Assembly: GCA_036004805.1 (NCBI GenBank)
Contig: DASYRB010000008.1
Location: forward strand, 3,090-67,089
Length of the DNA stretch: 64,000 nt
Direction of reading: 5' to 3'
Source of the DNA: Candidatus Norongarragalinales archaeon
GTDB taxonomy: Archaea > Micrarchaeota > Micrarchaeia > Norongarragalinales > DASYRB01
Shown here: piece by piece, positions 1 through 41,655 of the stretch
Layout: each line of letters starts with the position of its first letter
Numbering within the stretch: the stretch's first letter is position 1
Made by a program: the position numbers and the translations under genes
The notes under the pieces: generated by a model
Seen by the model: the letters and a program-made list of their open reading frames with translations, nothing else
What the model was told of the DNA's origin: nothing
Database searches by the model: none

Positions 1-2
1 GG

Positions 3-1112
3 GTCTACTATCTCGACATCACCACGCCAACACAGCTCGTGGTGGCGATCAGGGATGATGATGGCGCGGTATTGACGGACAACTTCACGCTTTCAGCGCT
101 CGCGAAACTGGCGTATCACAACGACCAGTTGCGCCTCGCGGGCGTGCGCAGAGCTTCGGCGAGCGATTACTCTTCATTCCTCGAAGCCTTACAACCGACC
201 GCGCAGGACTTGCCGCAGCGCGTCGATTCCGCAATGCGTCCGCTCGACAACAAGTATCCCGAAATGCTGCTCAGCGTCACCCTAGTGCCGCTAGCGCAGG
301 TCGTTCATGATGACTGGCTTGACGCGACCGACCGCACACGCGACGCTTTGACACTGCAGGAACAATTCGACCGCAGCGTCGACAGCGCCGACCTCGAGCT
401 TTCTTACAACCAGCACGTCGCGAGCATGGATCGCGTCGACGCGCTGCTGAAAGCGATGGTCTCTTACCAACAAAACGTTACTGCGAAAGCCAACAACGCC
501 ACTGCGCGCTATTCAGGCACCAACCGCACCGAGATCGTGCAAGCGTTACAGAGCATTTACAACCTTGGCGACTTCGCTAACGCAAAGCTGCGTTTCGATT
601 CGGCGCGCGCAGAGTTCCAATCACGCGCCGGCGCCGAGGACGCTTGGAGCGCGAGGGCCGTCGAAAACTTGTTTTTCAGGAACACGCGCGCGAAAGCCAT
701 CGCGCAATACGATGCGCTCAAGCCCAGAGTGGAAGCATTGTTCGCGAGCGAGTCGACGCTTGCGAGCGCGGGCGTCGATCTTCAAGCGCTGCGCGCTTTG
801 TGGACGAGGATCGATGTGACGATGAAACAACCCGCAGCCACTCTCTCGGAATACGAGGTCGCGATCAGCAACATGGAGAGCGCGCAAGAACAAGTCAACG
901 AGGCTAACGCGAAATACCAATCCTATCTGCGCTCGCAACAACAACCAACCACCACTACACCGCAAGCTGATTATTCTTTGATCGCGATCGGTGTCGTGGT
1001 GCTCGCGATCGCTGGATACTTCGCTTACCAATACTGGAAGAAGCGTCAAGAAGGCGGCGGTAGTGCAGAGCCCGTGGTCGAGCGAAAGAGCGGTGGCGGT
1101 CTTTACGGCTAG
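3..1112 (+). CDS. Hypothetical surface/membrane-anchored protein, probably 5'-truncated by the window edge
   Basis: The frame of ORF 39..1112 stays open back to base 3 (VYYLDITTPTQL...), so the gene likely starts upstream. The C-terminus has a Thr run (PTTTTP), one hydrophobic helix (LIAIGVVVLAIAGYFAYQYW) and a KKRQ basic patch. No enzymatic motif recognised. Confidence 0.6.
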   Translation, partial: VYYLDITTPTQLVVAIRDDDGAVLTDNFTLSALAKLAYHNDQLRLAGVRRASASDYSSFLEALQPTAQDLPQRVDSAMRPLDNKYPEMLLSVTLVPLAQVVHDDWLDATDRTRDALTLQEQFDRSVDSADLELSYNQHVASMDRVDALLKAMVSYQQNVTAKANNATARYSGTNRTEIVQALQSIYNLGDFANAKLRFDSARAEFQSRAGAEDAWSARAVENLFFRNTRAKAIAQYDALKPRVEALFASESTLASAGVDLQALRALWTRIDVTMKQPAATLSEYEVAISNMESAQEQVNEANAKYQSYLRSQQQPTTTTPQADYSLIAIGVVVLAIAGYFAYQYWKKRQEGGGSAEPVVERKSGGGLYG

Positions 1113-2011
1113 GATTGTTTCGGTTCGCGCATGTGCAGCTCCAACACGTCGCCGTCTTGCAGGTCGTGGTCGGCGCTGACTCTCATTCCCGGAAACCTCG
1201 CGCTCGGACCCCAAACTCTTCCATATTCCAGGTTGCGGTAGAGGTCTTTGTGAATTTCTTTAGCCGCTTCAGCCACGGTCCGGTTGTCGTTGTGCAGCAC
1301 GATGGGTCTTGAAAAATCGGCTTCGCCGCGCGGCGACTTCGTATAAACGCGCACGAGACCGAGCTGTTTGTAGAGGCGTTCTTTCAGCGGCTGTAAGCAT
1401 TCCTTCTTCCAGGAAGGGCATTCTTGTTTTACGTCGATGAAGATTGCGGGTCGCTGTTTGAGGAATATGGGGTTGTTGTATTCGAAGAACTTTTTCTGTT
1501 CCTCGAGTTTTTGTGAAGAGTCGAGCACGATGATGACGAGGTCGGCTGTTTGCGAGTAGGCAAAAATTCGCGACTTGACCTGCTCGTTGATGGAAGGCGT
1601 GTCGAGCACTTGCACTTGTACGTTGTTGTGCAGCCACATGCCCGGTTCCAGTTTTGTGGTTTCGAAAGGCGAGCTGGTAGAAGGCATTTTCAGCCCGCAC
1701 AACGCGTTGAACAACGCTGTTTTCCCTGAGTTTGGGAAGCCGACGAGCGCGATTTGTGCGCCGCCTTGTTTTTTGACGAACTCGCCCTTGCCGCCCTTTT
1801 GGAGTTTCTTCCTTATTTCTTCTTTTGCGTGTTCTCGGATGAGTTGCGCGCGCTTGCTTCGAATGACGCGGAGGATGCTTTCTGCCGATTTGTGTTTGGG
1901 GCAGTAGCGCTCCATTTCCTGCAAGGCTTCCAGCTTTTCTTCGAAAGCCTTTGCGTTGCGGAAGCGCTCTTCGGCCGCGTAGTATTCTGGTCCCGCGTTC
2001 AGTGAAGCCAT
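1109..2011 (-). CDS. DRG/Obg-family GTPase with C-terminal TGS domain (short form)
   Basis: 300 aa. Walker A GFPNSGKT, G2-like PFETT, G3-like VLDTPS, and a C-terminal TGS-like segment (VRVYTKSPRGEADFSRPIVLH...VWGPSARFPG). No NKxD motif seen. Shorter than my recollection of roughly 365 aa for archaeal DRG. Confidence 0.8.
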   Translation of the reverse strand: MASLNAGPEYYAAEERFRNAKAFEEKLEALQEMERYCPKHKSAESILRVIRSKRAQLIREHAKEEIRKKLQKGGKGEFVKKQGGAQIALVGFPNSGKTALFNALCGLKMPSTSSPFETTKLEPGMWLHNNVQVQVLDTPSINEQVKSRIFAYSQTADLVIIVLDSSQKLEEQKKFFEYNNPIFLKQRPAIFIDVKQECPSWKKECLQPLKERLYKQLGLVRVYTKSPRGEADFSRPIVLHNDNRTVAEAAKEIHKDLYRNLEYGRVWGPSARFPGMRVSADHDLQDGDVLELHMREPKQS

Positions 2012-2080
2012 TAGTCTAGACTATTGATTGGGTCTTGGTTGAAAATAAAGACTGTTTGAGTTTTTCGGACGCGTTTTTTC

Positions 2081-2254
2081 TTAGAGCGCGTGTCCGGTGA
2101 GCATCGAGTAGACGACTCTCACGGTGACGGTGCCGTTCAAGAGCGTGGTGCCTCTTTGCGCGGGCGTCATGTAGTACGAATACATGAGATAGACGACGAT
2201 GAGTACGAGCAGAACGATTGCGGCGTAGACTAGTTTTTCTTTGGTCCAATCCAT
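2081..2254 (-). CDS. Small membrane protein (57 aa), hypothetical
   Basis: Not in the ORF track (<60 aa). Hand translation: MDWTKEKLVYAAIVLLVLIVVYLMYSYYMTPAQRGTTLLNGTVTVRVVYSMLTGHAL*. ATG start and one clear TM helix. More plausible than the Arg-rich ORF 2016..2249 in another frame. Confidence 0.45.
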   Translation of the reverse strand: MDWTKEKLVYAAIVLLVLIVVYLMYSYYMTPAQRGTTLLNGTVTVRVVYSMLTGHAL

Positions 2255-2307
2255 TTGTCAGATTTTACCTCTGTGAGGTGTTACAGCAGGAGTCTATTAT
2301 TGGGAGT

Positions 2308-2940
2308 TTAAAAAGTCTCGTTTTCTCGCTCGCGTCTCACTTTCCATACCTCGACGCGTTCGAAAAAGAAGCTTGCGGAACCGACGAGCTCTATCACGAA
2401 TCCTTTTTCCTGAAGCGTTTTGCGCGTTTTTTCTAGATCGTTCAGCGAAGACTGTACCAAGAGCAGTTTTCCGTTTGGCGCGAGATGGTTGTTGAAGGAT
2501 TGTAGGAAGCGGTCGATGGTTTCGCGTCCGTCCAGTCCTCCGTCGTAAGCGAGGTTCTCTTCGTCGTTCAGCTTTTCATCGTTCGCGGTGGGCAGGTATG
2601 GCGGGTTGAACAAGATCGTGTCGAACTTGCCTTTCAGGTTTTCAAAAATGTCGGTCTTGACGAAGTCGCAAGGCGTCGCGAGCGTTGAAGAATTGTCTTT
2701 CGCGGCGTGTACCGCGGCGTCGTTGAGATCGGCAAAAACGACGCGTTCAACATTGCCGTTCATGGTTGCAGTGATCCCAGCGATTCCCGTGCCGCATCCG
2801 AGGTCGAGGATTTTGCCTCGCGCGTTGTGGAAAGCCGCGCGAGCGAGCAATAGCGAGTCTTCTTGGGGTGGATAGACGGTGCGTGGCACGGAGACGTGTG
2901 GAAAGGAGAAAGAGCGGTCAGTCATTGTGTTTTGTTTCAA
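2308..2940 (-). CDS. HemK-related SAM-dependent methyltransferase (Mtq2/PrmC-like)
   Basis: 210 aa. SAM-binding ILDLGCGTGI, catalytic NPPY (LFNPPYLP), and the N-terminal VYPPQEDSLLL typical of archaeal HemK-related methylases. Confidence 0.85.
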   Translation of the reverse strand: MKQNTMTDRSFSFPHVSVPRTVYPPQEDSLLLARAAFHNARGKILDLGCGTGIAGITATMNGNVERVVFADLNDAAVHAAKDNSSTLATPCDFVKTDIFENLKGKFDTILFNPPYLPTANDEKLNDEENLAYDGGLDGRETIDRFLQSFNNHLAPNGKLLLVQSSLNDLEKTRKTLQEKGFVIELVGSASFFFERVEVWKVRRERENETF

Positions 2941-4524
2941 CTATAGCGGTCTTGCGTCGATGTGCACGCCGAGTTTCTTTTCGAGCACTTGTATCGTTTT
3001 GCCTTTGTGTCCGACTAGTTTGCCGATGTCGCGTTCTGGAGCGTAGACGGTGAGGTTGTCGCCTTCCAGCTTGATCTCGTACCTGTCAAGAAAACGAGAA
3101 AGCAGTCCGCGGATCTTGCCCTCGTTGATCTGTATCGCGGGTCCGGCGAGTCTTTCCTGTCCTTTGGCTTTGGCGTTCTTCACTGGGAAAACGACGGTTT
3201 CTTCGCCGAACTTGTAGATTTCGTACTCTATTTGTTGCGTCTCGAAATCCCTGACTTCTATCACGGGTCGGGCGAGGTCGGCTTCGCGCATTCCGTATGG
3301 TACTTTCACGACGAATGAAAGGTCGAGGACTTTCGCGACGTGTCCGGCGTGTATGAAGGTGATCGTGTCGATGACTTGCGGAATAACTCCCAAATCGATC
3401 TTTCCGATGAAGCGTTGAATCGCGTCGATGGCTCCGGACGCGTGCACTACGCCGACGAGGCCTATGCCTGCTAGGCGGAGGTCCGTGAAGATCTTGAAGT
3501 CTTCGGGTTTGCGTACCTCGTCGTAGATCGTGTAGTCGGGTCTTACTAGGAGGAGAATGTCGGCGGTGTTGTAGAAGCTGCCTTCTAGTGGCGCGTATTG
3601 GGTGATGAGCTTGCTGACTTGAAGGTCGCGTGGCTGTTCGAGTGTTTTCACTATCTTGTGTTGTTCTGCATAGTGGTCGGCGAGCGCGGTGGCGAACGTG
3701 CTTTTGCCGCTTCCCGGTCTTCCCGCGATGAGAATTCCTTCCGCCTTGCGCGCGATGCGGTCGTAGAGTTTGGGTGATAGTTTGTAGTCGCTTAGCGTGA
3801 GTTTGGCGATGGGTCGCACTATCGTGAGTTCCATTGCTTCGCTCAGGGGTGGCTTGGTGAACGTGACTCGATAGTTTCCTATTTGCAGAACTGTTGCGCC
3901 GCGTTTGTCGAGCTCGATGAAGCTTCTCGGGTTGCGTTTGCTGTACTCGATGGCTTCTTTCGTCATTTGCTCGATTTCTTCAGCATTGCTTTCCCTGTCT
4001 TCGATTTCTTTGAGCTCGAAGGCTCCTGGCATTCCGATCTTGGCGCGCGGCTTGAGGCCGTCCTTCAAGTGGACGCTGAGCGTTTGTGGCGTGAAGTATT
4101 TCGCGAAAGAGAGCTTGGGTTGCGTGACGATGGGTTCGAGGTATTCGACGCGCATTCCTTCTGCTTGAGCCACTTTTTGCTGAACCTTATCCGTCGTGAG
4201 CAGTTCGGCGTCGAACTTTTTAGCGATGGCGCGAATGTTGGCGTCGAGCGCGCCGTGCTTAGCTCGTTCGATTTCTTGGCTGGTTGGTCTCTCGCCGGCG
4301 AACTCGAGTGAGATCTTTTTTTCCTTGCTCATGTCGGCGAGTTTCTTGAGCTCGTCCAGGCCAGTAAAGCCCGTTTCCCTGCCAATGTTGGCTTGGTACT
4401 CGAGCTCCGCCACTACGACTTGTGGCACGATGACGCGTACTTTTTCTTTTTCGCGCGCGAGCCTTTCAGTGATCCTGCCATCGATAAGCACGCCTGTGTC
4501 TGGAACTATGACTAGCTCTTTCAT
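2941..4524 (-). CDS. PIN-domain / PilT-like ATPase / KH-domain protein
   Basis: 527 aa. N-terminal PIN-like VPDTGVLIDG, Walker A GRPGSGKST, C-terminal KH motif VGHKGKTIQVLEKKLG. This is the architecture of archaeal PIN-ATPase-KH proteins. Confidence 0.85.
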   Translation of the reverse strand: MKELVIVPDTGVLIDGRITERLAREKEKVRVIVPQVVVAELEYQANIGRETGFTGLDELKKLADMSKEKKISLEFAGERPTSQEIERAKHGALDANIRAIAKKFDAELLTTDKVQQKVAQAEGMRVEYLEPIVTQPKLSFAKYFTPQTLSVHLKDGLKPRAKIGMPGAFELKEIEDRESNAEEIEQMTKEAIEYSKRNPRSFIELDKRGATVLQIGNYRVTFTKPPLSEAMELTIVRPIAKLTLSDYKLSPKLYDRIARKAEGILIAGRPGSGKSTFATALADHYAEQHKIVKTLEQPRDLQVSKLITQYAPLEGSFYNTADILLLVRPDYTIYDEVRKPEDFKIFTDLRLAGIGLVGVVHASGAIDAIQRFIGKIDLGVIPQVIDTITFIHAGHVAKVLDLSFVVKVPYGMREADLARPVIEVRDFETQQIEYEIYKFGEETVVFPVKNAKAKGQERLAGPAIQINEGKIRGLLSRFLDRYEIKLEGDNLTVYAPERDIGKLVGHKGKTIQVLEKKLGVHIDARPL

Positions 4525-4551
4525 CGCTAAGAATTAGGTCGAAGGAGGGTT

Positions 4552-5754
4552 TTATTGGTGCGGTGAAGCCTTCGCGTCGAGCGCTTTCATTGCCTGTTCT
4601 ATTTCGCCTTCGGCCAGCAGATCGAATATCTGTTCCGCGTTGATGTCGAGGTTGGCTGCTTTGAGCTTGGTTTTGAGGATGTCGAGGCCCAATTCGCGCG
4701 AGCTTCTCGATTCTTCGCGCTGCCGACGCACTTTTTCGATCTGTTCTTTGAGCTCATCGCTCTCGAACTCCTTATCGATCGACGCTAACAGCTTGTCGCT
4801 GAACTCTTCACGCAGCTTTGAGACGTCGATGTGGCTCGAGCGCGTGCCTTTCGACAGCGTGCCGCGCAGCTTGATCTTGACGAGCGGCTTTTTCGCGTCC
4901 TTTTTCGACGCTACTTCCGCAAGCTTTTCGCGTGCTTTTGCCAAGACGTCGGTAGCGTTGGCTTGGTCGAGCTCGATGTCGATGTAGTAGAATGGCCGCG
5001 AGTCGATCTCGTTGAATTCCGCTTTGCGCGTGTTGGTGTCGAAGATCCAGAAGCCTTTGCGTTCTTGTTCGATCTCTTTCATTTGCGTGATGACGGTGCT
5101 TCCCGGAATGAGTACGCGTTTGCCTCCGCTGTTGATGTCGCGGCGCCAGTGAATGTGCCCATTCACGTAGAGATCGAAGCCTTCGGGAAGGTCGCTGATC
5201 GCGAGACAATCGTCTACGGGAATGAGTTCTTTGAGGGACTGGTGGAACGCGAAAATGCTGAAACAGCCTGGCAGGGGTTTTGGTTCCAGGGCTTTGACGG
5301 CTTGTGTTGCGAACTCTTCCGGCACGCCGCCCATTCCGTAAACCGCAACTTTCTCGCCGTTCTTTTCCACCACGACGTGTGAGGCGTGAATGTTGACGAA
5401 AACGCCGGCCGCGTCGAGCACTTGCACGATGTTCGTCATGCCCTTCGAACGCCTCTCGTGCGTGCCGTAGGTGACTAGGAGCGGGTTAGTTTCGAGCGTC
5501 GTGACGCTTCCGTCGCTGTTGACGCGCGTCATCGCTAGGTCGTTGGTTTTTTCTCGCATGAGGCCGCGTGCGTAATTGAAGAGCTGTATGGCTTCGTGCA
5601 CGGTTTCCTGCCTTGGCACGCGGATGTCGAACAAGTCTCCCGGGAGTAACATGACGTCGCAGTCGCGCGCGGCTTTGCTGAGTGCTTCGCGTGCTTGTGG
5701 CAGCGCGTCGTCGTTGTAGCCGAGGTGAAAATCAGAAGCTATGGCGATCTTCAT
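4552..5754 (-). CDS. Mre11/SbcD-like metallophosphoesterase
   Basis: 400 aa. Calcineurin-type motifs ASDFHLG, PGDLFD, GTHE, NGHIH, followed by a charged coiled-coil C-terminus. No Rad50 gene adjacent. Confidence 0.72.
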   Translation of the reverse strand: MKIAIASDFHLGYNDDALPQAREALSKAARDCDVMLLPGDLFDIRVPRQETVHEAIQLFNYARGLMREKTNDLAMTRVNSDGSVTTLETNPLLVTYGTHERRSKGMTNIVQVLDAAGVFVNIHASHVVVEKNGEKVAVYGMGGVPEEFATQAVKALEPKPLPGCFSIFAFHQSLKELIPVDDCLAISDLPEGFDLYVNGHIHWRRDINSGGKRVLIPGSTVITQMKEIEQERKGFWIFDTNTRKAEFNEIDSRPFYYIDIELDQANATDVLAKAREKLAEVASKKDAKKPLVKIKLRGTLSKGTRSSHIDVSKLREEFSDKLLASIDKEFESDELKEQIEKVRRQREESRSSRELGLDILKTKLKAANLDINAEQIFDLLAEGEIEQAMKALDAKASPHQ

Positions 5755-5825
5755 TTGCTGAAAAAATCCCTTCGTCGAGAAATAGATATCAGCATGTTCT
5801 TATACGCGCGCCGACCAAAACACCT

Positions 5826-6200
5826 ATGGGGAAAATGGCTCTAGAACAATGGCTACTGTACGCAGTGGCAGCGATGCTTCTTTTCAGCGTCACTAACGTA
5901 GTCCTAAAGATTCTCGTCACTGATTACGCGATCCACGACTTTTCCAACCTGACGAACGCGCTTTCCGAAATCAAGGGCGCCGCGCTCTTGCTTCTCGTCG
6001 TAGCTTTTTCTCTTGCGGGCATTTGGTTCATGCTCTCGGCACTCAGCATCGGCAAGGTCGCGATCGTTTCCGGCGTGCTCGCGATGGGAGTCGTTTTAGT
6101 CGCGGTCTTCTCTTACTTCTTGCTTGGCGACAGGTTCGCGTTGAAAGAACTCGGCGCGCTCGGACTCGCTCTTATCAGCATCTTGTTGCTGTTATTCTAA
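5826..6200 (+). CDS. Small multi-TM membrane protein (half-size EamA/SMR-like transporter)
   Basis: ORF 5682..6200 trimmed to the ATG at 5826 (MGKMALEQWLLYAVAAMLLF...). 124 aa, about four hydrophobic helices. The upstream extension is Arg-rich and runs into the divergent gene's start. Confidence 0.6.
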   Translation: MGKMALEQWLLYAVAAMLLFSVTNVVLKILVTDYAIHDFSNLTNALSEIKGAALLLLVVAFSLAGIWFMLSALSIGKVAIVSGVLAMGVVLVAVFSYFLLGDRFALKELGALGLALISILLLLF

Positions 6201-7154
6201 TTCGAGGAGCGCTTCGTTCGCGATGAATTCTGAAAAAAGTCTAGCGTAAGCGGGCCTGAACTGCGCGCCACCCACGTGCTGGTGTCCGCCGCCGCTTCCG
6301 GAATACTTTCTCGCACCGCGTTCCATGAGTTGCCCCACGTTAGGCTTTGAGAGCGTTTCTCGCTTTACCGCGCTCGCCTTTCCTTCAAGAGGGTTTATGG
6401 CGATGCCGACATCAGCGCCGCACTGCACAAGCGCGCTCGCGACCTGAATCGTGAAAGCCCTGCAGTTCGTCCAAGCGACCACCATGTGATTCTTGCTCGT
6501 GAGCATTCGCGCGTTCTTCACCGCGTCAAGCACGGCCATTTTCTGTCCATAGTCCGGCTCTCCTTCCGCGATCGCTAGGATTTGCGAGTACTGCTTTTTC
6601 GCGAGCTTCATGAGTTCGCTCACCGCGATGAAGGTCGAGGGCTTGGCGCTCTTGAAGTTGGCGCTGTCACGGAAGACTCCCGCAAGCAACAGCGTCGCGA
6701 GCCTGTCGCCAGGTTTCTTTTGGGCCATTTTCAGAAGTTCGAAAACTATTTCGCACGTGCTCGCGCTCTCTTCATCCACGTAACGCGTGCTTGCCTGTAA
6801 GTAATCGCTGTGGTAGTGGTGGTCGATGACAACGATTTTGCCTTTGACTTGTTTCAGCTCGTCGAGCCTTTCGCTGATGAGCGCGGGCGTGCTGACGTCA
6901 ACGAAAACCACGTTGTCGTAATTGAACAAGGGTCGCGCGATGGGCATCGCGAACTTGGTGGCTTTGAGTGCGCGTTTCGCGTCGCTGGCTATCGCGTCGA
7001 TGCTGGCTGCTTCGCTGTTGGGAATAAGTTGTTCGAGCGCAATGGCGCTGGCGACCGCGTCCACGTCTCCGAGAGAGTGGAAGGTGATGAGTGTGCGTCC
7101 TTTGAGTTGTTTGAGCGCGTGAAAGGTTTCGGATAGCGTTGAGAAGAGCTTCAT
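6192..7154 (-). CDS. DHH/DHHA1 phosphoesterase (NrnA/RecJ-like)
   Basis: 320 aa. DHH motif VVIDHHYH and DHHA1 motif GSGGGHQHVGGA. Confidence 0.8.
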   Translation of the reverse strand: MKLFSTLSETFHALKQLKGRTLITFHSLGDVDAVASAIALEQLIPNSEAASIDAIASDAKRALKATKFAMPIARPLFNYDNVVFVDVSTPALISERLDELKQVKGKIVVIDHHYHSDYLQASTRYVDEESASTCEIVFELLKMAQKKPGDRLATLLLAGVFRDSANFKSAKPSTFIAVSELMKLAKKQYSQILAIAEGEPDYGQKMAVLDAVKNARMLTSKNHMVVAWTNCRAFTIQVASALVQCGADVGIAINPLEGKASAVKRETLSKPNVGQLMERGARKYSGSGGGHQHVGGAQFRPAYARLFSEFIANEALLELE

Positions 7155-36408: not shown

Positions 36409-36545
36409 TAGCTTGTTTTCAATCCACCGTAAAATAGGAGTTTTTAGGACGCAAGAATTAAGGGGTCGGGGGCTTCTTATTAATGCTTACAATCACCAAA
36501 AGAAACTAGCAAACGAATTCTTCGAAATTCTTCGGATTTTCGCGC

Positions 36546-36630
36546 GCAGGGGTGGCAGAGCCTGGACAAATGCGCCGCGTTCAGGGCGCGGTCTCTTAGG
36601 AGTGCGAGGGTTCAAATCCCTCCCCCTGCA
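36546..36630 (+). tRNA. tRNA-Leu (anticodon CAG)
   Basis: Hand fold: GCAGGGG TG GCA GAGCCTGGACAAA TGC G CCGCG TTCAGGG CGCGG TCTCTTAGGAGTGC GAGGG TTCAAAT CCCTC CCCCTGC A. Long variable arm. Confidence 0.9.
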
Positions 36631-36648
36631 CTCTAGTTTTCGAAAAAA

Positions 36649-37302
36649 ATGGCTAGCTTGTATCATTGGCTCGCGAAGAAAAAAGCGCAGCGAATAGCTT
36701 CCGAGACCGTCAAGGACTTGTTGGAAAAAGGCAGGGCGGCGACGGGCTTCGAGTTCGGTTCCTTCACTAAAAGCTGGAAACCCATTCTCACAAAAAAACA
36801 CCAAGGATTCACGCGCGTATCTACCATGCGCGTATTGGAAAAAGGCATCATTGCGGGAGCCAAAGACCTCGCGTCTTTTCGCCTCGCGTACTACCCGAAA
36901 AATATTGATGAAGCGAGAGCTTTCGCCGCGGGCGCGCTGCGCGTAGCTGGCGGCGGACCGGCACAAGCTTATCCGGGCGCGGTGGGTTCGCTTTACGGGG
37001 CGGAAAAGAACGATCACACTTACGCGATCGGTTACGTGCAGGGACACTTCTTGTTGCAACGCACGCCAGAACTTTCCAGGAAGATCGTGACGAAGCACGG
37101 CGGCTGGCGTCACCACTTGCTCAATCACGCTTTCAAATTGATTCAAGAAAATAAATCCATAAGCAGAATACAACTATCAATGTCACAAACCACTCCCGAG
37201 ACGATGAAAATTTTCAAACAAGTCGCGGCAAAGCACGGCTTCAACAAGTTCGTACACAGGAAAAGCGAATGGAGAGAACACGTCTTCGCAGAAAAAACCT
37301 AG
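36649..37302 (+). CDS. Orphan family 'GGW-HL' copy 1 (217 aa)
   Basis: Shares the ordered motifs AYPGAVGSLYG, GYVQGHF, KHGGWRHHLL and C-terminal KIFKQVAAKHGF with ORFs at 39404, 40026 and 41011. Starts 18 nt after tRNA-Leu. Confidence 0.75.
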   Translation: MASLYHWLAKKKAQRIASETVKDLLEKGRAATGFEFGSFTKSWKPILTKKHQGFTRVSTMRVLEKGIIAGAKDLASFRLAYYPKNIDEARAFAAGALRVAGGGPAQAYPGAVGSLYGAEKNDHTYAIGYVQGHFLLQRTPELSRKIVTKHGGWRHHLLNHAFKLIQENKSISRIQLSMSQTTPETMKIFKQVAAKHGFNKFVHRKSEWREHVFAEKT

Positions 37303-37319
37303 ATCGAGAAATTTGAAAA

Positions 37320-37961
37320 ATGACAAAAGTACATTTCATTGACGACATCCCTGCAGAAACCATGAACGGGTTGCGCGAGAGGATTCGCAGCGCTAACGGC
37401 AAGGTCGTGTTGTTGGTGCATCCTTTCTATCTGCAGGGTCATCCGGATTTCGTAACGCAGGCCGCCGCTTATTGGAGGACGGTTCATAAGTTGTTGCGGC
37501 AAAGAAAAACGCCCTTGATAGTTTTGCAAACGAAAAGCGGCACGCGAAAACTATACAACATTTTGCAGAAAATCAAGGCGCTCCGGGATACGATTGTCAT
37601 TCCTACTCTTGATGGCGCCCCGCAAGCATTGCTTCACGAAAAGCGAGGATACTTCGACGAAGAACACGCGTTACTCATAGACACGCTAGCAAAAGCTGGC
37701 GCGCGAACTGTTCACCTGGGCGGTTCGCATGCTTGGAACTTTCGAACATCCACCGCGCAAGAAGTTTTAGAACACGAAAAAGAATGGCTCTCGCCGGAAG
37801 CGGCCAAAAAAGCGACCAAAGGCACCGCACACCTCGGCTGCATGGGCGAAACCTACCTCGCGCTCGTGAGATCTAAAAAGTTCAAAGTTCGACCCATACC
37901 TGAAGCAATGCTGCCGCACAAGCCAAGCTGGTTCCCAGCAACAGAAAAAAGGACTTCTTAA
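37320..37961 (+). CDS. Hypothetical protein (213 aa)
   Basis: Clean ORF 17 nt after the previous stop. Alternating strand/helix pattern (VVLLVHPFY, TPLIVLQT, TIVIPT, RTVHLGGSHAW). No family recognised. Confidence 0.7.
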   Translation: MTKVHFIDDIPAETMNGLRERIRSANGKVVLLVHPFYLQGHPDFVTQAAAYWRTVHKLLRQRKTPLIVLQTKSGTRKLYNILQKIKALRDTIVIPTLDGAPQALLHEKRGYFDEEHALLIDTLAKAGARTVHLGGSHAWNFRTSTAQEVLEHEKEWLSPEAAKKATKGTAHLGCMGETYLALVRSKKFKVRPIPEAMLPHKPSWFPATEKRTS

Positions 37962-37989
37962 TAACCGAGAAACGCGGAATTTATTCATC

Positions 37990-38151
37990 ATGGGAATTTC
38001 AAAAGCGGACTACACGAAACGCAAAAACACTCTCAAAGCGAAACTTGAGGAATTGGAGAAGAAGGCTCGCAATGACCCTCTCAAAAAGGACCGCGTGCTT
38101 CACGAGGAGATCGCTGACGTGAAGAAGAAGCTCGCGGAACTAGATTACTAA
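37990..38151 (+). CDS. Small coiled-coil protein (53 aa), hypothetical
   Basis: Not in the ORF track. Hand translation: MGISKADYTKRKNTLKAKLEELEKKARNDPLKKDRVLHEEIADVKKKLAELDY*. Confidence 0.35.
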   Translation: MGISKADYTKRKNTLKAKLEELEKKARNDPLKKDRVLHEEIADVKKKLAELDY

Positions 38152-38170
38152 AAACAAAACAAAAACAAAG

Positions 38171-38737
38171 GTGCTGATTGGATTGAAGAACTCTGGAACC
38201 GTTGCCGGCGTTTTGTTGATGCTTGCCGCCATCGTTTTTTCGGCAGGCATGTTTGTTTCAGAGTCTATGCATACCGGCTACAACCCGTCTCGCGATTTGA
38301 TCAGCGAACTTGGCGTCGGCCCAGGCGCGGTTTTTTTCAATTACGGCGCGATCCTGGCCGGATTGTTGGTGATTGCTAGCTCTTTCTCCGCTTCGTTCAA
38401 GAACATTTTCGTCTTTCTCTTGACGGTTGCCGCGTTCGGATTGTTGGGCGTCGGCATCTTCCCTGAAACGATGGCCGGACAACACTTCGTTGCCGCAAGC
38501 GTGACGTTCATTTTTGCCGGCCTCGCGGCGGTCGCTTCTTACTCTTTTTCGGAACCGCCTTTGAACAAGGTGTTCCTGGCATTGGGAGCGTTGTCGCTTT
38601 GCGCGCTCGCGCTGTTTTCTCTGCAAATATTCTTGGGCCTCGGCCCGGGCGGCATGGAGCGGTTAATGGCGTACCCGATCTTGATCTGGTCGTTGTTGTT
38701 TGGCTATTCCTTGGTGGAAAAGCGAGACCTTTGGTAG
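38171..38737 (+). CDS. Multi-pass membrane protein (DUF998-like), hypothetical
   Basis: 188 aa, about 6 hydrophobic helices. GTG start in the track; internal ATG alternatives exist. Confidence 0.65.
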   Translation: MLIGLKNSGTVAGVLLMLAAIVFSAGMFVSESMHTGYNPSRDLISELGVGPGAVFFNYGAILAGLLVIASSFSASFKNIFVFLLTVAAFGLLGVGIFPETMAGQHFVAASVTFIFAGLAAVASYSFSEPPLNKVFLALGALSLCALALFSLQIFLGLGPGGMERLMAYPILIWSLLFGYSLVEKRDLW

Positions 38738-38789
38738 AAAGAAGCGTCTTTAAAACTGTCAGGCGACCAAAACACGTTCGATCAAAAAA

Positions 38790-39392
38790 ATGAAACAACT
38801 AGCACTCTTGCTCGTGGCGTCGTTGTTGCTTTTCGGATGCGTTTCTCCAGAACAACAGCAATCGAACGCGCCCGTGAATTCTCAAGCGAACCTAACTACA
38901 CAATCAAGCGCTAACGCTTCAGGAGGAGTCTCAATGCAAAACACCGCCCAAAAAGGCGACAACGTAGCCGTCGATTACGTGGGGTCTTTGGATAACGGAA
39001 CGGTTTTCGACACGTCGATAAAAGAAGAAGCGGAGAAGGCCGGCTTGCCGCTTCGTGACGCTTACGCGCCACTCGAGTTCACGGTCGGCGCGGGACAAAT
39101 GATCAAAGGATTCGACGCGGCCGTGGTCGGTATGAAGGTGGGCGAAGAAAAAACAGTGCACCTCGCGCCCGCGGATGCTTACGGAGAGATCGATCCGCAA
39201 TACATCATGACCGTGCCTATCGCGAACGTGCCGGAAGGCGTCAAGGTCGGCTCGAGGCTTTCCACCCAAACGGGAATTCCTGGCGTCGTTACTTCAGTGA
39301 CGGACGTGAACGTGACTGTCGATTTCAACAACCCGCTCGCCGGCAAAGCGCTGAACTTCAGGATCATCATGCGCAAAATAACAAAGGCATGA
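38790..39392 (+). CDS. FKBP-type peptidyl-prolyl cis-trans isomerase with lipobox signal peptide
   Basis: 200 aa. Signal/lipobox LLLFGCVSPE. FKBP core GDNVAVDYVGSLDNGTVFDTS...PLEFTVGAGQMIKGFDAAVVGMKVGE plus an IF-flap insert. Confidence 0.88.
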   Translation: MKQLALLLVASLLLFGCVSPEQQQSNAPVNSQANLTTQSSANASGGVSMQNTAQKGDNVAVDYVGSLDNGTVFDTSIKEEAEKAGLPLRDAYAPLEFTVGAGQMIKGFDAAVVGMKVGEEKTVHLAPADAYGEIDPQYIMTVPIANVPEGVKVGSRLSTQTGIPGVVTSVTDVNVTVDFNNPLAGKALNFRIIMRKITKA

Positions 39393-39403
39393 GGCAATAA
39401 GTT

Positions 39404-40069
39404 TTGGCCGTTTTCACTTACGAAGAGGTCAAGAAGGAAGGCGCGCTCACTACGAGCCAATTGCAACGCCACCACATTGCGGTGATTGGCGAAACTGAAA
39501 GAGACGTGCACTTCGTACGCAACACTAGTCATGGTTTGATAGCGGAGTACTCGCACGACAATGATCACGAGTTGATGTATTTTCCGCAAGACCCAAAACA
39601 CGCGTCACAGTTTGCGGCCAGTGGTTACGTGATGAAGGCGCTCGGGCCCGGCGACATCTATCCGGGAAGCGTGGGCGTGCTGCATTACGAGTTCCACAAG
39701 AAAACGATGCTCGTGCAATGGGTCCAGGGAAGTTTCAAGACGGGCGAGCCGAAAGAACTCACGCGCGCCATTGTTTCGAAGCACGGAGGCTGGCGGCTGC
39801 ACCTGTTCGACGAAGCACTCAAGAGAGCGAAACGTTTCAACATCAAGAAAGTAGTTTTCGCGCCAGAACCGCCGCTCGAAATCGAAAAAGTACGACAAGC
39901 CAGAGAAGCACACCACGGCAACGCGATAGCCGATTTCCGCAAAGTCGCTGAAAGGCCCGAACACGGTTTTCACGTCGAAGAAAAAATCTTGGAAGACCTT
40001 GAACTGCAGAGAGCGAGAAGAGAAGATGGCGGCGGAGGCAAGCACCGTGTTGAAGCGACGAGAACCTAA
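39404..40069 (+). CDS. Orphan family 'GGW-HL' copy 2 (221 aa)
   Basis: Motifs IYPGSVGVLHY, QWVQGSF, KHGGWRLHLF. TTG start in the track, 12 nt after the FKBP stop. The 3' end overlaps copy 3. Confidence 0.68.
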   Translation: MAVFTYEEVKKEGALTTSQLQRHHIAVIGETERDVHFVRNTSHGLIAEYSHDNDHELMYFPQDPKHASQFAASGYVMKALGPGDIYPGSVGVLHYEFHKKTMLVQWVQGSFKTGEPKELTRAIVSKHGGWRLHLFDEALKRAKRFNIKKVVFAPEPPLEIEKVRQAREAHHGNAIADFRKVAERPEHGFHVEEKILEDLELQRARREDGGGGKHRVEATRT

Positions 40070-40739
40070 AATCGACCGCGCGGCCGAAGCTGAACGCGTC
40101 GTACACGAACTGCTAACGAGAGGAACGACGGTGGTTCGAGCCCCGCCCTCGGGCGCGAAGAGGCGCGAAAGCATCATCCTCAAGAACGTAAACCGAAGCG
40201 GTAAAGGCATCGTTGCTGAAGTCATCAATCCAGGAGGCATTCGCTCCGTGACCGGCGCCGCGAGTAACGCGAAAGTACTCGTGTTTTTTCCGACCAACAA
40301 GGAACACGCGCGCTTGTTCGCGCTCAACCAGAACATCCTTTTTCCGGGAGGTCCGAGCTCGCTTTTTCCCGGAAGCGTCGGCAGCCTGAAGTACTCAAGA
40401 CAACAATTCCCGAAGACTTCTGCTTATGACGTTCACTGGATCCAGGGTCACTTCAAGACGAGCAGCGCGTTTCAAATTCCTCGCAAGATCGCCACGCTGT
40501 ACGGCGGTTGGAGCACGCACTTGTTGAACGTGTTGTTCGAGAGAGCCGCGAACGCTTTCCCTGGGAAGCACAAGCTGGTCGAGATGCGGTTCATGGGCGA
40601 CGAGGAAGCGCTTCGAAAATTGCAACCGAAAGGCGTGCTGTTCGAAAAAATAGCGAAGAGCAAAAAGTTCGACGTTTCGAAAGACCGTTCCGCTAGCGGT
40701 TTGCCTTACGCGTTCATGGCGAGACGAAAACCGCAATAA
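40026..40739 (+). CDS. Orphan family 'GGW-HL' copy 3 (237 aa)
   Basis: ORF 39999..40739. ATG at 40026 is preferred because MAAEASTVLKRREPKIDRAAEAERVV then aligns with the copy-4 N-terminus. Motifs LFPGSVGSLKY, HWIQGHF, LYGGWSTHLL, VLFEKIAKSKKF. Confidence 0.7.
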   Translation: MAAEASTVLKRREPKIDRAAEAERVVHELLTRGTTVVRAPPSGAKRRESIILKNVNRSGKGIVAEVINPGGIRSVTGAASNAKVLVFFPTNKEHARLFALNQNILFPGGPSSLFPGSVGSLKYSRQQFPKTSAYDVHWIQGHFKTSSAFQIPRKIATLYGGWSTHLLNVLFERAANAFPGKHKLVEMRFMGDEEALRKLQPKGVLFEKIAKSKKFDVSKDRSASGLPYAFMARRKPQ

Positions 40740-40799
40740 AAAATTCTTGGACGCTTTCTCCGCATCTTTTTATTCGAAGCGGGCCGCAAACAATTCGCT

Positions 40800-41006
40800 A
40801 TGAACAATGACTACACGCCGCTCTACATTGCCGGATGGATAATGATGATTACGGGACTCGTTTACGCAGTGCTTCCGCACGACCTTCACGCGGTCTTGCC
40901 GTTTTTCAGCGAGGAAGCGCACGAGCTGCACGAAGTGTTAGGCATGGGCGTCGTTGTTCTCGGCGTAGTGGTCTTGGCTATCGACAGGAGGATGAAGAAC
41001 CGTTAG
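40800..41006 (+). CDS. Small two-TM membrane protein (68 aa), hypothetical
   Basis: Has two hydrophobic helices, LYIAGWIMMITGLVYAVL and GMGVVVLGVVVLAI. ATG start. Ends 4 nt before the next gene. Confidence 0.5.
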   Translation: MNNDYTPLYIAGWIMMITGLVYAVLPHDLHAVLPFFSEEAHELHEVLGMGVVVLGVVVLAIDRRMKNR

Positions 41007-41010
41007 AGCA

Positions 41011-41655
41011 ATGACAAAGCTTCCACGCGCAGAGCCCAAGTTCGACTTCGAAGGAGAAGCGGAACGCGTCATCGAACAACTCAAGAGCAAGGGAGAAGTG
41101 ATCACGGGTCCGAGCAATCGCAAACTTTACGTCGTCGGAGCGAGAGGAAAGGGTTTGGTTGCGGAAAGCGAACGCACCCTGCAAAAGCCTCGCGCGACAG
41201 AGCTCGTTTTCTATCCCGAACCACAACACGTCAAGCTTTTTGCGAGAAGCAACGCGATCGGAAAGGTACGCACCGGCGGTCCCGGATACCATTTTCCCGG
41301 AAGCGTGGGCTCGCTTTATTACCAGAACCACGAGGGCGAGCTGCACGTCGCTTGGATCCAGGGCAGCTTTGCGCAAAAAACCACTCCCGGCCTCGAACGC
41401 AAAATAGTCACTCGTTACGGCGGCTGGAGAGAACACCTTTTGAAAGAATTGTTCGAACGCGCCGACCAAAAAGGAATTCGCACGGTGCGTTATTACTCGG
41501 GACAAATAATCTCGGTCTCGAAAGACACGCACGAACCCAAAAAGGTTAACGAGGCGCTCTTCGAAAAAATAGCTGCTAACGCGGGCTTCGAAACGAGGGC
41601 GGAGTTCTTGCACGGCGGAAACAACAAGTACCTCGTCGCTCGCAAAAAACTGTAA
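41011..41655 (+). CDS. Orphan family 'GGW-HL' copy 4 (214 aa)
   Basis: Motifs HFPGSVGSLYY, AWIQGSF, RYGGWREHLL, NEALFEKIAANAGF. N-terminal EPKFDFEGEAERVI is shared with copy 3. Confidence 0.75.
   Translation: MTKLPRAEPKFDFEGEAERVIEQLKSKGEVITGPSNRKLYVVGARGKGLVAESERTLQKPRATELVFYPEPQHVKLFARSNAIGKVRTGGPGYHFPGSVGSLYYQNHEGELHVAWIQGSFAQKTTPGLERKIVTRYGGWREHLLKELFERADQKGIRTVRYYSGQIISVSKDTHEPKKVNEALFEKIAANAGFETRAEFLHGGNNKYLVARKKL

Follow-up and report, generated by a model that had tools for sequence, protein, structure and literature searches.

An undescribed family of basic archaeal proteins with a predicted, divergent GNAT-like fold, viewed from four paralogues next to a tRNA-Leu gene

In the genome of a Candidatus Norongarragalinales archaeon (assembly GCA_036004805.1, contig DASYRB010000008.1), a densely packed run of ten plus-strand features, at positions 36546-41655 of the 64-kb stretch of DNA analyzed here (hereafter the window), holds four open reading frames (ORFs) of related sequence, the first of which lies directly behind a tRNA-Leu gene. 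What are the products of these ORFs, and do they, as a preliminary description of the locus had proposed, represent an orphan family at the center of an undescribed system to which the tRNA and the intervening genes belong? The answer that we regard as probable on balance is that the four ORFs are stand-alone, old paralogues of an undescribed family of small, strongly basic, cytoplasmic proteins with a divergent GNAT-like fold, which would function in an acyltransferase-like manner on an anionic target. What stands of the preliminary description is a real paralogous family with a GNAT-like fold; its orphan status, the multi-gene system and the link to the tRNA are not supported.

Paralogy, extent and conservation of the family

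The four ORFs, all on the plus strand, are supported by ORF calling, by alignment and by a hidden Markov model (HMM) of the family. They are copy 1 (36649-37302; 217 amino acids (aa); HMM expectation value (E) 2e-90), copy 2 (39404-40069; 221 aa, with a TTG start), copy 3 (40026-40739; 237 aa when counted from the ATG at 40026) and copy 4 (41011-41655; 214 aa). The copies align over their full length with 28 invariant columns, copies 2-4 being 28-33% identical to copy 1, and within this alignment all four share the three motifs ([YF]PG[SA]VG, [WY][VI]QG[HS]F and GGW[RS]xHL[LF]) by which they had originally been recognized as relatives. Pairwise BLASTP comparisons among them return E of 1e-14 to 1e-26 (at a nominal database size of 1e6); thus, the four ORFs are true paralogues. 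Copies 3 and 4 additionally share an N-terminal segment of the form EPK[IF]D..EAERV[VI], and copy 4 is the nearest paralogue of copy 3 (BLASTP E 1.6e-26; the clade of their most recent common ancestor by neighbor-joining has 2 leaves). In a rough neighbor-joining tree copies 2-4 fall within a small clade of 8 leaves, and the node that unites copy 1 with them covers 81 of the 148 leaves; copy 1 is the most divergent of the four. A six-frame HMM scan of the window found no fifth copy. At the DNA level, recognizable repetition is confined to the motif-coding stretches (60-78% identity), which indicates that the duplications are old.

Certain details of the gene boundaries deserve mention. The last 44 nucleotides (nt) of copy 2 overlap copy 3, and because the C-terminal tail of copy 2 can be aligned to the final strand of its three paralogues, this overlap is real. 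It had been pointed out in the preliminary description, as had the N-terminal segment common to copies 3 and 4 and the start of copy 1 at 18 nt past the end of tRNA-Leu (a 17-nt gap), and all three are seen in our analysis. The 221-aa form of copy 2 with its TTG start is recorded only among the JGI gene calls, and the NCBI annotation may have the gene with a different start or not at all; copies 1, 3 and 4 correspond to the NCBI entries VGQ00_01125, VGQ00_01155 and VGQ00_01165. Long ORFs of 211-243 aa are also present on the minus strand at 36493-37173, 39605-40336 and 40978-41613, where they overlie copy 1, copies 2/3 and copy 4, respectively. Without independent support of their own, these are most likely shadow ORFs of the coding strand.

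The family to which the four copies belong is not an orphan one. When 1.84 billion cluster representatives were scanned exhaustively with HMMER, 310 were recovered at E<=1e-3, of which 168 reach E<=1e-10 and 6 reach E<=1e-30. Seeded with the alignment of the four copies, a word-indexed search of 5.8 billion proteins found just those four; seeded with 100 members, it found only 8 sequences. Most of the 150 listed members are 190-260 aa in length, the family as such spanning about 190-290 aa. Screening with a degenerate DNA pattern that encodes K[YH]GGW[RS]x[HRQ], coupled to an HMM check, placed members in seven archaeal genome contigs (three of Candidatus Iainarchaeum, one of Candidatus Micrarchaeota and three labeled 'archaeon' or 'uncultured archaeon') and in about 14 metagenome contigs. 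About half of the pattern matches overall had no HMM support and are attributable to chance (4 of 11 in genomes, about 10 of 24 in metagenomes and the only one in viruses); the bacterial matches are likewise chance matches, and no member was found in the viral contigs scanned. Every member with a named source comes from one of two DPANN groups, the Micrarchaeota (to which the Candidatus Norongarragalinales archaeon of the window belongs) and the Iainarchaeota, or from an unclassified archaeon. Thus, the family is seen so far only in archaeal contigs and is restricted to DPANN where a taxon is named.

None of the curated libraries has a model that covers the four copies: there is none in Pfam (E<=1), NCBIfam, PADLOC or PHROGs, and the sequences of the PDB give nothing significant, in keeping with the earlier remark that the motifs fit no characterized family. 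Nor did a full-text search of the literature find a description of such a family. It is, in short, unnamed and without a curated model, and shares only its predicted fold with the well-known GNAT superfamily.

The family nevertheless presents a distinctive pattern of conservation. In a 100-member alignment P83, F92, G110, V112, G113, Q131, W153 and A193 (copy 1 numbering) are at least 90% conserved. Over 154 sequences, the conserved features also include a YYP motif, H/D/E at 88, GP at 103-104, R144, K-[YH]-G-G-W-R at 149-154, H/R156 followed by L-L, F162 and F189. Several of these conserved polar residues (H88, Q131, R144, Y/H150, R154 and H/R156), along with the near-invariant P83, G110, G113 and W153, are disposed around a predicted cleft. 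The same 154 sequences are strongly basic, with a median isoelectric point (pI) of 9.87 and an interquartile range of 9.5-10.2; for copies 1-4 the pI is 10.2, 8.1, 10.6 and 9.8, respectively. A pI of about 9.9 is unusual for metabolic GNATs, and the high positive charge suggests an anionic partner, for example a nucleic acid or the ribosome.

The predicted fold and its relationship to GNATs

An AlphaFold2 model of copy 1, built with a 100-member alignment, presents one compact domain (predicted local distance difference test score (pLDDT) 90.1; predicted template-modeling score (pTM) 0.86), with only the loop 37-52 disordered. Foldseek comparison of this model to the PDB recovered GNAT acetyltransferases as 50 of the top 50 matches (best E 5.6e-4), with alignments of about 155 columns, identities of 7-15% and TM-scores of 0.24-0.48. 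Those retrieved include SpeG (7kwj, 4mj8), the histone acetyltransferase Gcn5 (6cw2, 9ynv), AAC(6')-Ib (2qir, 1v0c), the IAA acetyltransferase and EctA, among others. Against the viral BFVD, the top match was a GNAT-domain protein of Pithovirus (E 7.4e-5; TM 0.41/0.44), with many N-acetyltransferases next in line. Hence, the earlier guess, made at the level of the fold, that the C-terminal part is laid out like a GNAT acquires support from a structural model.

The elements of the model from residue 113 onward are strands at 113-119 and 124-132, a short helix at 144-149, a helix at 153-166, a strand at 173-177, a helix at 183-195 and strands at 200-205 and 210-215. In order and length these match the GNAT succession beta3-beta4-alpha3-beta5-alpha4-beta6-beta7; thus, the beta4-alpha3-beta5-alpha4-beta6-beta7 run that constitutes the GNAT core fold is present in the copy 1 model. 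Three points of likeness to the superfamily can be singled out: (i) the C-terminal strand-helix-strand-helix-strand-strand run has elements of GNAT length; (ii) a glycine-rich loop lies at the N-terminus of the helix equivalent to alpha3; (iii) an '...A...GF' helix-strand junction is found where motif B of the GNATs lies. In contrast to the GNATs, the family lacks similarity at the level of sequence profiles, has K-[YH]-G-G-W-R in the place of motif A and an Ala in that of the alpha4 Tyr, carries in its N-terminal arm a long helix and three strands beyond those of a GNAT, and displays motifs of its own (PGSVG and YYP) along with the pI of about 9.9. As judged from the model, the Foldseek matches reflect a resemblance of the core, i.e., the C-terminal half, and not of the whole domain. 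At the position of motif A, K-[YH]-G-G-W-R retains the G at the fourth place but has R rather than G/A at the sixth and K rather than Q/R at the first. It is possible that this element is a functional analog of motif A, as distinct from the canonical motif.

A number of results weigh against the reading of these proteins as GNAT-like acyltransferases. The Foldseek TM-scores, only 0.3-0.46 for the PDB and BFVD matches taken together, are low and the E-values modest. The N-terminal 110 residues form a non-GNAT arm, comprising a long helix, four strands, a helix and the PGSVG loop, and the canonical GNAT arm beta1-alpha1-alpha2-beta2-beta3 is absent from the model, the order being helix, four strands, helix, two strands. 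When the N-terminal 146 aa of copy 3 were modeled separately (pLDDT 87), Foldseek found nothing convincing in the PDB for residues 1-146, the best match (E 6.4e-3, TM 0.26) being to a protein other than a GNAT. The canonical Q/R-x-x-G-x-G/A of motif A is absent from the family, as had been noticed from the four copies and as the alignment confirms; the linker between beta4 and alpha3, which carries the conserved R144, is about 20 residues long vs. about 6 in GNATs; and the alpha4 position that often holds a catalytic Tyr is occupied by a near-invariant Ala (A193). Sequence profiles are equally silent: when 100 members were scanned against Pfam at E<=0.01, no family of the GNAT clan came up, a search of the PDB with the 100-member profile found no GNAT, and hhalign gave probabilities of only 0.4-2.5% against E. 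coli RimI and SpeG or a profile of five GNAT sequences, of which RimI alone was confirmed (full-length to PDB 5isv, E 1.7e-95). The local register in hhalign, which places G-W-R-x-H-L-L of the family over G-L-G-R-A-L-L of RimI, is not significant on its own. A homologue search with RimI returned near-identical enterobacterial RimI only, and jackhmmer with RimI over the ORFs of the collected loci returned nothing. Finally, with respect to the distribution of the family, organism names exist for a minority of members only.

Gene neighborhoods and tandem arrays

The block in the window comprises tRNA-Leu and nine plus-strand ORFs, with intergenic gaps of -44 to 60 nt, and is flanked by minus-strand genes on both sides (by Pfam, SecF/SecD ahead of the tRNA and PAC2/eIF2-alpha beyond copy 4). 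The ORF calls, ARAGORN and Rfam place all ten features where the preliminary description had put them. In addition to the four copies, these are tRNA-Leu(CAG) (36546-36631; ARAGORN and Rfam) and five further ORFs, all of them on the plus strand: a 213-aa ORF of no known family (37320-37961), a 53-aa coiled-coil ORF (37990-38151), a 188-aa DUF998 membrane protein (38171-38737; Pfam E 6e-20), an FKBP_C protein with a lipobox-like N-terminus, i.e., an FKBP-type lipoprotein (38790-39392; Pfam E 3.7e-20), and, between copies 3 and 4, a 68-aa ORF with two transmembrane segments (40800-41006; sub-threshold Pfam matches only). The 213-aa ORF is not a member of the family; it gave nothing beyond noise in Pfam, NCBIfam, PHROGs and PADLOC, and its best match in the PDB is the Stf0 sulfotransferase at E 0.08. 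For the 53-aa ORF, PADLOC had noise-level matches only. The 17-nt spacer behind tRNA-Leu (36632-36648) holds a T-run (TCTAGTTTTCG) and is too short for a separate promoter of copy 1. TATA-like sequences occur ahead of two of the later genes, namely TTTAAA at 38749-38754, 41 nt before the FKBP start, and TTTTTA at 40767-40772, 33 nt before the start of the 68-aa ORF. From their sequence and placement, these boxes suggest internal promoters and hence separate transcription units.

Is this constellation a system? We sampled 27 distinct other loci, each with an HMM-verified member of the family, and phmmer searches of their ORFs found no homologue of the 213-aa ORF, the 53-aa ORF, the DUF998 protein or the 68-aa ORF near the members. 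The only neighbor from the window to recur was a homologue of the FKBP protein, which was found once, 6 kb from a member, in a single lineage (L042/L043). Tabulation of these neighborhoods, thus, offers no co-occurrence with the 213-aa ORF or the membrane proteins, and the 'undescribed system' of ten features envisaged earlier dissolves into a family and neighbors that are not conserved with it. All-against-all clustering of the neighbors revealed no family shared beyond near-identical contigs or close relatives. The genes that do lie next to members are housekeeping ones: an ABC-F ATPase, an M50 peptidase, Cdc48, and the ribosomal proteins L1/L10; S2; L24e/S28e/L7Ae; eIF6, L18A, prefoldin, SRP54, FtsY and RadA; RpoK, aCPSF and a DHH protein; and the L3-L4-L23-L2 operon. 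Hence, the family genes stand alone, and the genes interspersed between them in the window are not conserved partners.

The adjacency to a tRNA, too, is not general in the other loci. A tRNA within about 1.5 kb of members was found only in the L040/L042 lineage, where it is a tRNA-Ser with two unrelated genes in between. In this lineage (L042:8529-10753 and L040:11337-13558) the order is tRNA-Ser(tga), two genes without annotation in the locus and then the family member, with the FKBP-lipoprotein homologue 6 kb downstream; one of the two intervening genes in the L042 lineage matches an AbiEii-type nucleotidyltransferase (Pfam E 6.5e-6). We therefore treat tRNA-Leu as a neighbor of copy 1 and not as a demonstrated functional part.

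What does recur is the clustering of the family genes themselves. Two adjacent copies are found in L012 and likewise in L018/L041. The largest array comprises six consecutive copies on the same strand in L044 (7146-11569 of a 57.8-kb contig from Logan SRR22746137), flanked by the genes for ribosomal protein S2 and for L24e/S28e/L7Ae. The six are 30-45% identical to each other; PG[SA]VG and Q-x-x-[FY] are found in all six and GGW in five of them. Thus, tandem amplification recurs in the family, with arrays of 2, 2 and 6 copies, and the window, with one old copy and a looser trio broken up by unrelated genes, fits this pattern.

One setting departs from the housekeeping contexts seen at the other loci. 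In L003 (positions 1-7000) and L004, the member P0151 lies beside a type I restriction-modification locus into which a TIR-domain gene is inserted, along with genes for DUF3800, PIN and YoeB-like proteins, i.e., in surroundings rich in defense and toxin-antitoxin (TA) genes. In L050, HicAB adjoins the family member. The Cdc48/VAT AAA ATPase beside the member in L035 (2683-6579, minus strand) carries an intein with a LAGLIDADG homing-endonuclease domain, and as a result measures 1299 aa as against the 726 aa of the intein-free version in L018.

Alternative explanations and the meaning of the family

The reading that we prefer starts from direct observations, namely the paralogy of the four copies, the size and distribution of the family, the resemblance of its fold to that of the GNATs, the want of conserved partners, the recurrent arrays and the basic pI. 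From these and from the model we infer what can be said of donor binding, catalysis and the nature of the acceptor. Briefly, the most economical mechanism would be acyl transfer, for which the simplest donor would be acyl-CoA (CoA, coenzyme A). With the QGxF strand equated to beta4 of the GNATs, the donor would lie between this strand and the one that follows. Where alpha3 begins, the K-[YH]-G-G-W-R loop would replace motif A and, together with R144, might hold the phosphates of the donor, whereas the PGSVG loop and the N-terminal arm could form the site for the acceptor. Going by the positive charge, the acceptor or partner would be anionic, such as RNA, the ribosome or another target associated with nucleic acids. 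The genes would act alone, and would duplicate in tandem and diverge, at 2-6 copies per array, presumably toward different targets.

The alternative to be taken most seriously, although we consider it unlikely, is that the GNAT-like module is not catalytic, with the proteins being pseudo-enzymes that bind RNA, DNA, the ribosome or a protein; the fold would then be a scaffold and the charge a binding surface. The missing canonical motif A and alpha4 Tyr, the want of a sequence-profile link to active GNATs, the very basic pI and the frequent proximity to genes for translation or information processing all agree with this. However, the conserved Q131, R144, Y/H150, G151-G152, R154 and H/R156 sit at what in GNATs is the donor site, and they persist in copies only 30-45% identical to each other, a pattern seen more typically in active sites than in binding surfaces. 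A second class of explanations keeps the catalysis and changes the donor. The tRNA-dependent transferases with a GNAT-like core (FemX/FemABX, MurM, Aat and Ate1) lack the canonical motif A, occur as several paralogues per genome and have basic surfaces for tRNA. By analogy with Fem/MurM, the L/F-transferase and Ate1, the family might use a donor other than acyl-CoA, for example aminoacyl-tRNA, with paralogues specialized for different donors or acceptors. The likeness draws on what is generally known of those enzymes, and lies in the degenerate motif A, the strongly basic proteins and the multi-paralogue arrays, to which can be added that copy 1 abuts tRNA-Leu. In the face of this, in Pfam, the family matches none of FemAB, Leu_Phe_trans and ATE; the top Foldseek matches are ordinary CoA-dependent GNATs, with Fem and the L/F-transferase absent from among them; the Fem proteins differ in having two domains and more than 300 aa; and the adjacency to a tRNA is not conserved. 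Hence, we hold a donor of this kind to be improbable.

The remaining alternatives concern the surroundings of the genes or a part of the protein, and we accord them still less credence. That the ten co-oriented features make up one undescribed multi-component system might be argued from their location on one strand throughout, with gaps of -44 to 60 nt, and from the several members without annotation. Yet tight packing on one strand is normal in the small genomes of DPANN archaea, the TATA-like boxes at 38749 and 40767 suggest separate transcription units, the clustering of neighbors shows no shared family, and the genes outside the family have no homologues near members in the 27 loci, bar the one FKBP gene 6 kb away; such a system appears very improbable. 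Even more remote, in our estimation, is a mobile or defense island at tRNA-Leu, or a role of the paralogues as GNAT-type toxins of TA pairs. This could draw on the location directly downstream of a tRNA gene, on the L003/L004 member among restriction-modification, TIR, PIN and YoeB genes, on HicAB beside the L050 member and on the AbiEii-like gene upstream in L042; moreover, the toxins TacT, AtaT and ItaT are small single-domain GNATs acting on aminoacyl-tRNA, and some members of the family are near TA genes. However, these toxins have a canonical Acetyltransf_1-type sequence and an adjacent RHH/DUF1778 antitoxin, whereas the family has neither a Pfam match nor, in the 27 loci, a conserved small partner gene, and forms arrays of up to six copies, the six tandem copies of L044 being without antitoxins. 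PADLOC found nothing above noise and PHROGs nothing. The 3' end of the tRNA has no direct, att-like repeat, nothing resembling an integrase was noted among the ORFs at 36.4-41.7 kb, the G+C content (0.505-0.545) is that of the rest of the window, and no member was found in viral contigs. The earlier proposal of a link to tRNA-Leu likewise finds no support in these results. Scarcely more credible is an N-terminal half derived from an Hjc-type PD-(D/E)xK nuclease and fused to a GNAT-like C-terminus. It is prompted by three Hjc resolvases (1hh1, 4tkd and 2eo0), the top sequence matches of copy 3 in the PDB, over a local similarity of 30 residues (TRGTTVVRAPPSGAKRRESI vs. DKGFAVVRAPASGSKRKDPI, E about 0.3), and by the helix-strand order of residues 1-100, which resembles alpha-beta-beta-beta-alpha. 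Such E-values fall short of significance, and with the 100-member profile no trace of the signal is left; the family does not conserve the segment, which in copy 1 corresponds to a low-confidence or disordered loop; the catalytic E..D..ExK residues are not conserved; and the top 50 Foldseek matches of the N-terminal model (pLDDT 87) include neither Hjc nor any other PD-(D/E)xK nuclease.

The corresponding candidate region, residues 18-66 of copy 3 (40026-40200 of the window; VVRAPPSGAKRRE vs. VVRAPASGSKRKD, E 0.3-0.5 with copies 3 and 4 and with the four-copy profile), was accordingly rejected on the strength of the separate model and its Foldseek search. We regard the resemblance to Hjc as a product of chance or, at most, a local relic.

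The reading of the four ORFs as stand-alone paralogues of a GNAT-like family also admits a more far-reaching version, which is speculative and which we think rather unlikely as a whole. In it, these would be DPANN-specific enzymes of the GNAT fold with a re-invented donor site, made up of K-[YH]-G-G-W-R and the PGSVG loop, whose targets for modification would be RNA, aminoacyl-tRNA or components of the ribosome and whose donor might be other than CoA; the arrays of 2-6 copies would then be a diversified modification toolkit in genome-reduced symbionts.

The ten-gene plus-strand block of the window can be set aside as a false lead. In DPANN archaea, the genomes measure about 1 Mb and many of the genes have no annotation. 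Since such small genomes keep the family and have repeatedly amplified it to 2-6 diverged copies, it is unlikely to be dispensable. About 310 clusters of 'hypothetical proteins' gain a testable hypothesis of enzymatic function, with a predicted fold, a likely chemistry, a hint as to the partner and a set of conserved residues. An unusual donor or acceptor (tRNA, rRNA or ribosomal proteins), if one were established, would make the family a new branch both of GNAT biology and of the biology of the symbiotic archaea.

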